A stretch of 15,475 nt of DNA from a virus (lineage: Duplodnaviria; Heunggongvirae; Uroviricota; Caudoviricetes), in IMG/VR virus record IMGVR_UViG_2558860274_000003. The stretch is one strand, 5' to 3'. How positions within the stretch are numbered: position 1 is the first letter of the stretch; every line of letters starts with the position of its first letter. Shown piece after piece: positions 8,228 through 9,211 of the stretch. The notes under the pieces are model-generated. The model saw nothing but the letters and a program-made list of their open reading frames with translations. It searched no databases and was not told the DNA's origin. Both the position numbers and the translations under genes were made by a program.

Positions 8228-8443
8228 TTAAGCGGCTTTGTGTTCCGGCGGGAACACGTCATCAAGACTGACTTTTGCGCCTAACTTGTTTAGGCATGCA
8301 ACAAGAGCACGGCATGTTTTAAGGTCTGGGAAGCGACGACCAGATTCCCAATGTCCGATAGCTCCCTGTGTGCATCCAACTGCCTTAGCAAGTGTTGTTT
8401 GAGAGATATTCAGTGACTCTCGATATTTTCGTAGGTTGCTCAT
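8228..8443 (-). CDS. cro: Cro-type repressor (71 aa, HTH_XRE)
   Basis: Start at the internal ATG (plus 8441-8443) preceded by GGAGGG; the longer ORF would overlap OR and cI. MSNLRKYRESLNISQTTLAKAVGCTQGAIGHWESGRRFP... is a classic Cro/C1-type HTH. It is divergent from cI across a 114-bp operator region. Confidence 0.8.
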   Translation of the reverse strand: MSNLRKYRESLNISQTTLAKAVGCTQGAIGHWESGRRFPDLKTCRALVACLNKLGAKVSLDDVFPPEHKAA

Positions 8444-8557
8444 ATGCCCTCCATAGTAAACACGAATAAAATACAATATGTACTTTAAGAATACAAGTAA
8501 AAATACACATTGTGCATGGATGATTCCAGTACAAAGCGTAATAATAAGGACATGAAA
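8444..8557. promoter_or_regulatory. OR-like divergent promoter/operator region (PR for cro, PRM for cI)
   Basis: 114-bp AT-rich interval between the divergent cro and cI starts. It contains short dyads (TACAATATGTA 8472-8482, CACATTGTG 8506-8514) and three ATACA(A/C) repeats (8471, 8491, 8503). A PR candidate on the minus strand is TTGTAT-17 bp-TATTTT (8496 to 8468). Confidence 0.55.
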
Positions 8558-9211
8558 ATGAAATGGTATGAACTGGCTAGATCCAGAATGAAAGAGCTCG
8601 GCATAACTCAAGAGAAGTTAGCCGAAGAGCTAGGTATGACGCAGGGTGGGATTGGACACTGGTTGCGCGGATCTCGTCATCCATCTCTTAGTGATATTGG
8701 TGTGGTGTTTAAATACCTTGGTATTGATAACATATCATTCAACCACGACGGGACATTTTCACCTGTTGGCGAATACTCATCGGCCCCAGTTAAAAAACAA
8801 TATGAGTACCCTGTTTTTTCTCATGTTCAGGCTGGGATGTTCTCTCCAGAACTCAGAACCTTTACCAAAGGCGATGCGGAGAGATTGGTAAGCACAACCA
8901 AAAAAGCCAGTGACTCTGCATTCTGGCTTGAGGTTGAAGGTAACTCAATGACCGCACCAACAGGTTCCAAACCCAGCTTTCCTGACGGGATGTTAATTCT
9001 GGTTGACCCTGAGCAAGCTGTTGAGCCCGGCGATTTCTGCATAGCCAGACTTGGTGGTGATGAATTTACCTTCAAGAAACTGATCAGGGATAGCGGTCAG
9101 GTGTTTCTACAGCCACTAAACCCACAATACCCAATGATCCCATGCAATGAGAGTTGTTCCGTTGTGGGGAAAGTTATCGCCAGCCAATGGCCTGAAGAGA
9201 CGTTTGGGTGA
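8558..9211 (+). CDS. cI: CI-type prophage repressor (217 aa): novel N-terminal HTH fused to a lambda-CI-type C-terminal S24 autocleavage/dimerisation domain
   Basis: The C-terminal about 130 aa ([26 protein letters not shown]...[22 protein letters not shown]) match lambda CI essentially residue for residue as I recall it, including the Ala-Gly cleavage site and Ser/Lys dyad region. The N-terminal HTH ([30 protein letters not shown]) is different. Start chosen at ATG 8558, 7 nt after AAGGA; ATG 8552 is an alternative. Confidence 0.88.

Follow-up and report, generated by a model that had tools for sequence, protein, structure and literature searches.

The 15,475-nucleotide (nt) stretch of DNA analysed here (the window; IMG/VR record IMGVR_UViG_2558860274_000003, from a tailed virus of the Caudoviricetes) carries a cI repressor gene, a divergent cro gene and two clusters of operators, which we identify with high confidence, from sequence comparison, as an intact lambdoid immunity region of the VT2-Sakai type (cI2c/cro4) residing in a degraded prophage. 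Gene layout and Pfam matches define a lambdoid early-control region in the opposite orientation to the usual lambda map, and its features follow the lambda order cro-OR-cI-rexAB-OL/PL-N, where OR and OL are the right and left operators and PL is the leftward promoter. The genes cI and cro flank a tripartite operator, over which the overlapping promoters PR (rightward) and PRM (repressor maintenance) are putative, and a second operator cluster (10729-10803) lies over PL, upstream of the gene for the N antiterminator.

An immunity region of a known phage type

The features of the switch are as follows.

8228..8443, minus strand: cro, 71 amino acids (aa), of the HTH_3 type as in phages 434 and P22, not of the lambda Cro fold
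8469..8485: OR1, 17-bp operator AAATACAATATGTACTT, exact reverse complement of the published VT2-SA OR1 and a putative operator in GenBank record AP005153
8468..8496, minus strand: putative PR, with -35 TTGTAT (reverse complement of 8491-8496), 17-nt spacer and -10 TATTTT (reverse complement of 8468-8473), read from the sequence and in agreement with AP005153
8501..8517: OR2, AAATACACATTGTGCAT, exact reverse complement of the published VT2-SA OR2
8527..8543: OR3, CAGTACAAAGCGTAATA, one mismatch to the published VT2-SA OR3
8517..8552, plus strand: putative PRM, with a weak -35 TGGATG (8517-8522), -10 AATAAT (8540-8545) and a start at about 8552, read from the sequence, with a similar annotation in AP005153
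8552..8800, plus strand: cI, N-terminal DNA-binding domain (Pfam HTH_3) and linker, starting at ATG 8552 or 8558
8801..9211, plus strand: cI, hinge with cleavage site and lambda-type C-terminal domain (Pfam Peptidase_S24; identity to lambda)
10729..10745: OL3, AAATACAAAGCGTTATA, one mismatch to an AP005153 operator
10762..10778: OL2, TACAACAAATTGTATTG, one mismatch to an AP005153 operator, overlapping the -35 of the putative PL
10787..10803: OL1, AATTACATATCGTACTA, one mismatch to an AP005153 operator, overlapping the spacer and -10 of the putative PL
10776..10804, plus strand: putative PL, with -35 TTGATC, 17-nt spacer and -10 TACTAT, read from the sequence, positioned as in AP005153
10994..11266, plus strand: N antiterminator (Pfam N_peptide, E 3.4e-32)

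CI is identical at 217 of 217 residues to the repressor of the Shiga toxin 1 (Stx1)-converting phage AP005153, including all 81 residues of the N-terminal domain; that domain is also 100% identical in the phages 1717, YYZ-2008, 2851 and PA, and 98.8% identical in VT2-Sakai. Cro matches the Cro of VT2-Sakai, AP005153 and PhiR57_1 at 71 of 71 positions, and the six dyads, three in OR and three in OL, map to the annotated putative operators of AP005153 with at most one mismatch each. The CI specificity domain, Cro and the operators are thus all those of the VT2-Sakai type, and on this basis the window CI is predicted to be homoimmune with it. The lambda CI N-terminal domain, lambda Cro and TATCACCGC-type operators that characterize lambda immunity are all lacking.

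The type is widespread. Region 8100-11300 is 99.6% identical to phages ev017, ev207, PhiR57_1 and PhiR63_2, and for its cro-OR-cI and OL-N parts the identity to Nil2, the Stx1-converting phage, Stx2 II, 1717, YYZ-2008, 2851 and PA4-type phages is about 96%. The specificity module (8228-8800) is present at at least 90% nucleotide identity in 776 of 5426 complete E. coli genomes, and the CI N-terminal domain at at least 95% in 62 phage records. One of the genomes, NZ_CM135829.1 (4.83 Mb, labelled E. coli DH5alpha), carries the module at 93.9%, which is unexpected in a K-12 derivative; the strain may have an additional prophage, or the record may be mislabelled.

That this repressor is a mosaic relative to lambda CI was published more than 20 years ago, and GenBank annotations and print also cover the type itself and the six operators. 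In the AP005153 record, three 17-bp sequences in the cro-cI gap and three more ahead of N are annotated as putative operators; Smith et al. 2012 (PMC3430580) designated the repressor cI2c and the Cro cro4, with a carboxy terminus in common with lambda CI; Yin et al. 2015 (PMC4587872) gave OR1-3 and OL1-3 for Sakai-type PST1 phages; and PMC10742460 (2023) describes six 17-bp operators for VT2-Sa. Passages of the latter article that cite Fattah et al. 2000 report high C-terminal and low N-terminal homology between the VT2-Sa and lambda repressors, similar recognition helices, and cross-immunity between the two phages. A first-pass annotation of the window, made from sequence alone, had proposed a distinct immunity specificity built by domain shuffling. 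The mosaic relation to lambda and the difference in the cro-OR-cI N-terminal module hold, but the type is not newly recognized, as its N-terminal domain is identical to that of a known one, and the cross-immunity ascribed to Fattah et al. makes its distinctness from lambda immunity uncertain.

A lambda-type C-terminal domain on a diverged N-terminal domain

The first-pass annotation had described the CI C-terminal domain as essentially that of lambda, and BLASTP bears this out, with 135 of 136 residues identical from YEYPVF to the final G and a single change of W to L. At the DNA level the homology to lambda starts abruptly at about 8801 and stops at the cI stop codon (9211), with unrelated sequence on both sides. 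Within this segment 381 of 408 nt are identical, and the differences comprise 26 synonymous and one nonsynonymous change (synonymous divergence, dS, 0.37; nonsynonymous divergence, dN, 0.003). Such a dS indicates that the sharing is old and the exchange not recent, and the excess of synonymous changes indicates very strong purifying selection on the domain responsible for dimerization, cooperativity and cleavage. The domain matches the full Peptidase_S24 profile (PF00717, E 1.1e-28), and the residues around the lambda Ala-Gly cleavage site (VQAGMF; A111-G112), together with S149 and K192, whose roles in the lambda protein are well established, are identical in the window CI. With an N-terminal helix-turn-helix (HTH) domain, a Peptidase_S24 domain bearing the Ser/Lys dyad and an Ala-Gly site, the window CI is by sequence a repressor of the LexA/lambda class, and RecA-stimulated autocleavage is expected of a domain that is one residue (W129L) away from that of lambda.

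The N-terminal HTH had been called unrelated to that of lambda. It does differ, with an identity over 81 residues of only 21% by multiple alignment and 35% by pairwise global alignment, yet both domains belong to HTH_3 (window CI residues 11-58, E 1.9e-10), and lambda repressor N-terminal domains are among its best matches of solved structure (1lli, E 4.5e-4; 1lmb; 1rio), so that by sequence it is a diverged homologue. The recognition helix of lambda, QSGVGALFNG, resembles that of the window CI, both starting with Q and having G at the third and fifth positions, while the lambda N-terminal arm is absent from the window CI in the alignment. Residues aligned to E34 and D38, which are known from lambda genetics for their role in positive control, are E and E.

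Two upstream starts for cI, TTG 8510 and ATG 8516, were rejected: both differences from AP005153 within 8516-8551 would be nonsynonymous, whereas those downstream are synonymous, and the same stretch holds OR3 and the -10 of PRM. A PADLOC search of CI returned only weak HTH matches, which were disregarded.

Cro as a paralogue of the CI DNA-binding domain

Cro matches HTH_3 (E 4.2e-12) and shows no similarity to lambda Cro by BLASTP; P22 C2 is a weak match among PDB entries. It is homologous to the CI N-terminal domain (22 of 62 residues identical, 35%; E 9e-13), and the two proteins have the recognition-helix motif TQGxIGHW in common. The near-identical second helix noticed at first pass is confirmed, since the Cro string GCTQGAIGHWESGRRFP and the 17-residue CI string quoted with it are both present and agree at 11 of 17 positions. 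Cro and CI plausibly read the same operators, as judged from sequence. This is supported by a comparison with Salmonella phage vB_SosS_Oslo (Oslo), where both proteins change together at three recognition-helix positions (CI and Cro residues, respectively: Q,Q to K,R; I,I to V,V; and G,G to S,C). Separately, chain A of PDB entry 28tn (deposited as 'lambda repressor-like protein', 82 aa) is a full-length homologue of Cro (8231-8443, minus strand; E 4.5e-17) and could serve as a template for modelling Cro-operator contacts.

Six operators in two clusters

The half-site consensus of the six operators is aAnTACAa, with A5 and C6 invariant in 12 of 12 half-sites and A2 present in 11 of 12. The short ACA..TGT dyads reported earlier in OR and the PL region proved to be operator cores: perfect ACA-N3-TGT sequences at 8473, 8505 and 10766 are the cores of three of the six. 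The motif is common to both clusters, although OL begins at 10729, slightly to the left of the 10740 boundary first given for it. Exact TACA-N4-GTA occurs three times in the window, each time within OR or OL, and when one mismatch is allowed 6 of the 45 loci fall inside the 245 bp of OR plus OL (binomial P 7.6e-5). Among 20000 local-composition shuffles, one gave six loci and none gave three exact matches, and other A+T-rich segments of the window contain at most two loci. A general repeat search did not recover the OR operators and gave only one partial inverted pair in OL.

The operators are placed as a lambdoid switch would require, with OR1 over the -10 and spacer of the putative PR, the centre of OR2 at about -43 from the putative PRM start, and OR3 over the putative PRM -10. 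The OR2-OL2 centre-to-centre distance is 2261 bp, compared with 2230 bp in AP005153 and 2359 bp in lambda. A sigma-70 consensus scan requiring at least 9 of 12 matches called none of PR, PRM and PL, so the promoter assignments rest on reading of the sequence and on the AP005153 annotation.

The cro-cI intergenic region of Oslo (2075-2183) contains the TACA-N4-GTA cores GTATACACATCGTATTC and TGATACAAATTGTATAA and, 6 nt ahead of the cI ATG, a perfect TATAAT, giving the same PRM geometry (TATAAT-N6-ATG). In the Oslo operators the core is kept and the outer positions differ; in particular, the conserved A at position 2 is not kept. By analogy, this loss fits a lambda-like Gln-adenine contact at operator position 2, a contact familiar from the lambda co-crystal structures.

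Motifs resembling N-utilization sites were also noted. A nutL-like motif (10851-10895, plus strand) consists of a boxA, GCTCTTTAA, and a boxB-like element, TGGCTGAAAAGCCA; a nutR-like motif (about 8174-8215, minus strand) consists of a boxA, CGCTCTTTG, and a boxB-like element, CGCTGAAAAGCG, in whose stem a G-C pair is exchanged for C-G. In both, the stretch from boxA to boxB has the arrangement AACAACG-hairpin-CTACGT, with different hairpins (GTCGA/TCGAC and GGAC/GUCC). The folding energies of the two segments were not significant (z -1.7 and -1.1), and they are reported as sequence motifs only.

Proposed working of the switch

Gene structure, domains, identities, operator positions and operator enrichment were computed here, and promoter assignments, activation, looping, cleavage and operator preference are carried over from the biology of lambda, 434 and P22. 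In the proposed mechanism, the HTH_3 domain of CI would read the 17-bp dyads through their aAnTACAa half-sites, and the C-terminal domain would provide dimerization, pairwise cooperativity and RecA-stimulated self-cleavage at the conserved Ala-Gly. CI dimers on OR1 would cover the -10 and spacer of PR; CI at OR2, at about -43 (the lambda OR2 centre is at -42), would activate PRM, whose transcript may start at the A of the first ATG (8552) and be leaderless as in lambda; and OR3, lying over the PRM -10, would allow negative autoregulation of cI. At the other end, OL1 and OL2 would cover PL upstream of N, with all three OL operators lying over this promoter, and looping between OL and OR through the C-terminal domain is probable, as the clusters lie about 2.26 kb apart, a distance compatible with it. 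Cro, itself paralogous to the N-terminal domain of CI, would occupy the same sites as CI in another order of preference and shut off PRM. The two cargo genes downstream of cI are probably co-transcribed with it. In the present remnant, the remaining CI most likely serves as an orphan immunity factor that blocks superinfection by phages of the same type, including Sakai-type Stx2a phages, and would silence the residual PL operon (N, ral, cIII and kil).

Several points weigh against this reading. The switch of this copy is known from sequence alone, and the electrophoretic mobility shift assay (EMSA) data that we found concern lambda CI only. The prophage is defective, so that the switch no longer controls a lytic programme here; none of the three promoters reached the consensus threshold, their matches being weak; and OR1 and OR2 are spaced 32 bp centre to centre compared with 24 bp in lambda, meaning that the cooperative geometry may differ.

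Cross-recognition with lambda

The cross-immunity reported for VT2-Sa and lambda raises the alternative that the region is functionally lambda-immune, with helices similar enough for each repressor to act on the other's operators and no separate specificity. In EMSA, lambda CI shifted the VT2-Sa operators with apparent dissociation constants (KD) of 3.7-6.4 uM (PMC10742460), and the half-sites of the two systems share A2, A5 and C6, as the helices share their initial Q and the third and fifth G. The same assay gave 0.21-0.35 uM for lambda CI on its own OL1 and OR1 and 3.07 uM on OR3 (PMC10742460), so the VT2-Sa values are 10-30 times weaker than those of OR1 and OL1 and no better than that of the weakest lambda site, and a non-specific DNA control is absent from the main text of that article. 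Moreover, the operators have T and A at positions 4 and 7 where those of lambda have C and C, the window CI is without the lambda N-terminal arm, and the Cro sequences are unrelated. We therefore regard a single shared specificity as unlikely, and cross-recognition between the window-type and lambda repressors as unproven.

An intact module in a degraded prophage

Homology to intact phages ends at 8003, within a truncated cII gene.

8003..8086, minus strand: the first 28 codons of cII, all that remains of the gene (from blastn and from translation compared with PhiR57_1)

After codon 28, cII runs into unrelated sequence (7958-8086, minus strand), and the remainder of cII, together with the replication (including O and P), late and morphogenesis genes to the left of cro, is lost; intact relatives have them. 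The cII and replication genes expected downstream of cro in a complete lambdoid region are thus cut or absent. The open reading frame (ORF) at 7442-7654 (minus strand) has a weak match (phrog_57, E 1.1e-5) to the N-terminal end of a small terminase subunit. The arrangement suggests an internal deletion of the replication-to-packaging region. The left flank contains this terminase-like fragment, an element of insertion sequence (IS) family IS66, an IS2-like element, envY and ompT. The right flank comprises the PL operon, with N, ral, an additional 149-aa ORF, ea10 with an IS3-family insertion, cIII, kil, a gam fragment and an integrase fragment; sieB (Pfam SieB) lies beyond N on the opposite strand.

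Such damage would also be expected if the whole locus were a decaying relic, a dead prophage in which cI and cro are unexpressed, unselected and functionless: cII is cut, whole gene blocks are absent, IS66, IS2-like and IS3-family elements have inserted, and gam and int are truncated. However, cI, cro, N, the six operators and the cargo are intact and 99.3% identical at the nucleotide level to the complete genome of PhiR57_1, CI and Cro are without amino-acid change relative to deposited phages, and an intact kil downstream of PL would favour keeping the repressor. A functionless relic thus appears improbable, about as much so as the shared specificity considered above. Sequence comparison indicates instead that the prophage is defective and that its immunity module is intact and protein-identical to those of complete deposited phages.

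Direction of exchange

Four repressor loci, those of the window, lambda, Oslo and PA2, were compared by distances only. Percentages are identities.

Window and Oslo: N-terminal domain plus linker 48%, Cro 46%, C-terminal domain 80%
Lambda and PA2: N-terminal domain plus linker 56%, Cro 52%, C-terminal domain 65%
Window and lambda: N-terminal domain plus linker 21%, Cro no real alignment, C-terminal domain 99%
Lambda and Oslo: N-terminal domain plus linker 23%, Cro no real alignment, C-terminal domain 81%
Window and PA2: N-terminal domain plus linker 25%, Cro no real alignment, C-terminal domain 64%
Oslo and PA2: N-terminal domain plus linker 27%, Cro no real alignment, C-terminal domain 60%

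By its N-terminal domain and Cro, lambda falls with PA2, but its C-terminal domain places it with the window and Oslo. Most simply, the VT2-Sa/Oslo lineage was the source from which lambda obtained its C-terminal domain, a reading that with four taxa and distances is suggestive only. The earlier picture, in which another head received the tail of lambda, probably has the direction the wrong way round, as the window is congruent with Oslo throughout and lambda is the incongruent member.

That the specificity is a hitherto unrecognized one, made recently by grafting a lambda CI C-terminal domain onto a foreign DNA-binding domain, is very improbable: the mosaic is real, with sharp boundaries at about 8801 and the stop codon and with an N-terminal domain and Cro that differ from those of lambda, but the same CI, Cro and operators recur in the phage records and E. 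coli genomes counted above, VT2-Sakai, Nil2, AP005153 and AP005154, deposited in about 1999-2003, all have the type, the mosaic is already in print (PMC3430580, PMC10742460), the C-terminal coding segments have a dS of 0.37, and the four-taxon congruence points to lambda as the recipient.

The C-terminal domain is found at at least 95% identity in 98 phage records, 62 with the window N-terminal domain and 36 with that of lambda, and in this phage collection it is thus shared by only two specificities. With one amino-acid change despite a dS of 0.37, the two C-terminal domains are similar enough for mixed dimers or cooperation across types to be predicted. We tentatively propose, as a possibility that we consider somewhat doubtful, that lambda CI is a chimera, with a cro-OR-cI N-terminal module shared with PA2/TL-2011c-type phages and a C-terminal domain from the VT2-Sakai/Oslo lineage, that the two repressor types form mixed dimers or cooperate, and that an orphan CI such as this one influences how lambda-immunity or Sakai-type Stx prophages residing in its cell are induced. 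If this is true, mixed dimers could underlie the reported cross-immunity, as cross-talk without cross-binding.

Cargo genes and neighbouring elements

Two further features lie between cI and the OL cluster.

9251..10557, plus strand: two overlapping cargo genes (185 and 250 aa) where lambda has rexA-rexB (PADLOC; DUF1828)
10561..10582, plus strand: terminator-like hairpin closing the cI-cargo operon, with an 8-bp stem of which 6 pairs are G-C, followed by a T-rich tail

The cargo ORFs (9251-9808 and 9805-10557, plus strand) overlap by 4 nt, and their products match the two components, A (E 4.8e-4) and B (E 6.1e-10), of PDC-M24, a candidate defence system in PADLOC. In Pfam the pair corresponds to DUF6978 (below cut-off) and DUF1828, and in PHROGs to families of unknown function. 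The cassette is also present in ev017, ev207 and PhiR57_1, and Stx phages of the same immunity carry other cargo. An A+T-rich gap separates the hairpin from N.

In the right flank, a 490-bp segment (12309-12798) is absent from PhiR57_1, from avian pathogenic E. coli (APEC) IMT5155 and from the Stx phages compared. It includes the 149-aa ORF (12338-12787), which has predicted hydrophobic stretches, falls in phrog_3054 (unknown function) and had no Pfam or PADLOC match. The IS3-family element inside ea10 (13189-14508) contains an ALIL frameshift pseudoknot (Rfam, 13531-13647, plus strand, 120 bits). Further on, cIII (14740-14904), with a Lambda_thermo element at 14727-14785, and kil (14873-15016, coordinates inferred) are intact, and gam is cut at 15180 and followed by the C-terminal integrase fragment.

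In the left flank, the IS66-family element (tnpA, tnpB and tnpC; 5054-7458) adjoins the IS2-like element (3714-4987); APEC IMT5155 has a 95%-identical IS66 copy instead inside the N gene of its homologous prophage. A 257-aa ORF (3016-3789, plus strand) shows leucine-rich-repeat-like periodicity by eye and no Pfam match, and it runs at its 3' end into the beginning of the IS2-like element, so that it may be a truncated gene.

Comparison with known switches

The immunity type described here is used by Sakai-type Stx2a phages and by several Stx1, Stx2 and Stx2c phages, and an intact orphan copy in a non-inducible remnant is expected to protect its host from lysogenic conversion and lytic growth by those phages. 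For the evolution of lambdoid switches, two small points of interest are how extreme purifying selection has been on the shared C-terminal domain and which way the exchange probably went. As a discovery the locus carries little weight, because the type, the mosaic and the operators had already been published or annotated.

Its closest relatives are VT2-Sakai (Sp5), AP005153, Stx2 II, 1717, YYZ-2008, 2851, Nil2 and PA4-type PST1 phages, along with the non-Stx phages ev017, ev207 and PhiR57_1. The window shares with VT2-Sakai and AP005153 the gene order cro-OR-cI-cargo-OL-N, the type of N, and OR1 and OR2 without change, and each of the other four operators is one base off. The cargo differs, being the DUF6978-like/DUF1828 pair of ev017, ev207 and PhiR57_1 rather than the orf22-type cargo of the Stx phages, and the VT2-Sakai cI is annotated in an N-terminally shortened form whereas the window cI is full length.

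With lambda the region has in common a divergent cI-cro pair, an OR and an OL that each consist of three 17-bp dyads and lie about 2.3 kb from each other, cargo downstream of cI, an acidic activation patch with an OR2-like site at about -43 from PRM, and a plausible leaderless PRM start. It differs in its operator half-site (aAnTACAa, compared with TATCACCGc in lambda, with T and A instead of C and C at positions 4 and 7), in the fold class of Cro, which has no detectable similarity to that of lambda, and in cargo other than rexAB.

Oslo, of the epsilon34 group, is similar in having a collinear CI of 217 aa (N-terminal domain 48-52%, C-terminal domain 80%), a 46% identical Cro, TACA-N4-GTA operator cores and the same -10-to-ATG geometry of PRM. 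In its helices K/R replace Q, V replaces I and S/C replace G, and its operators lack a conserved A at position 2, so that by sequence the Oslo module is probably of a different specificity.

As in phages 434 and P22, where Cro is a paralogue of the repressor HTH domain and both proteins read the same operators through similar recognition helices, the window Cro and CI are paralogous. The operator sequence is different from those of 434 and P22, and the C-terminal domain is of the lambda type, with that of P22 about 46% identical to it. A comparable mosaic is known from another repressor family, in which 933W (cI1b) and BP-4795 (cI1a) have identical carboxy-terminal halves and different amino-terminal halves (PMC3430580).

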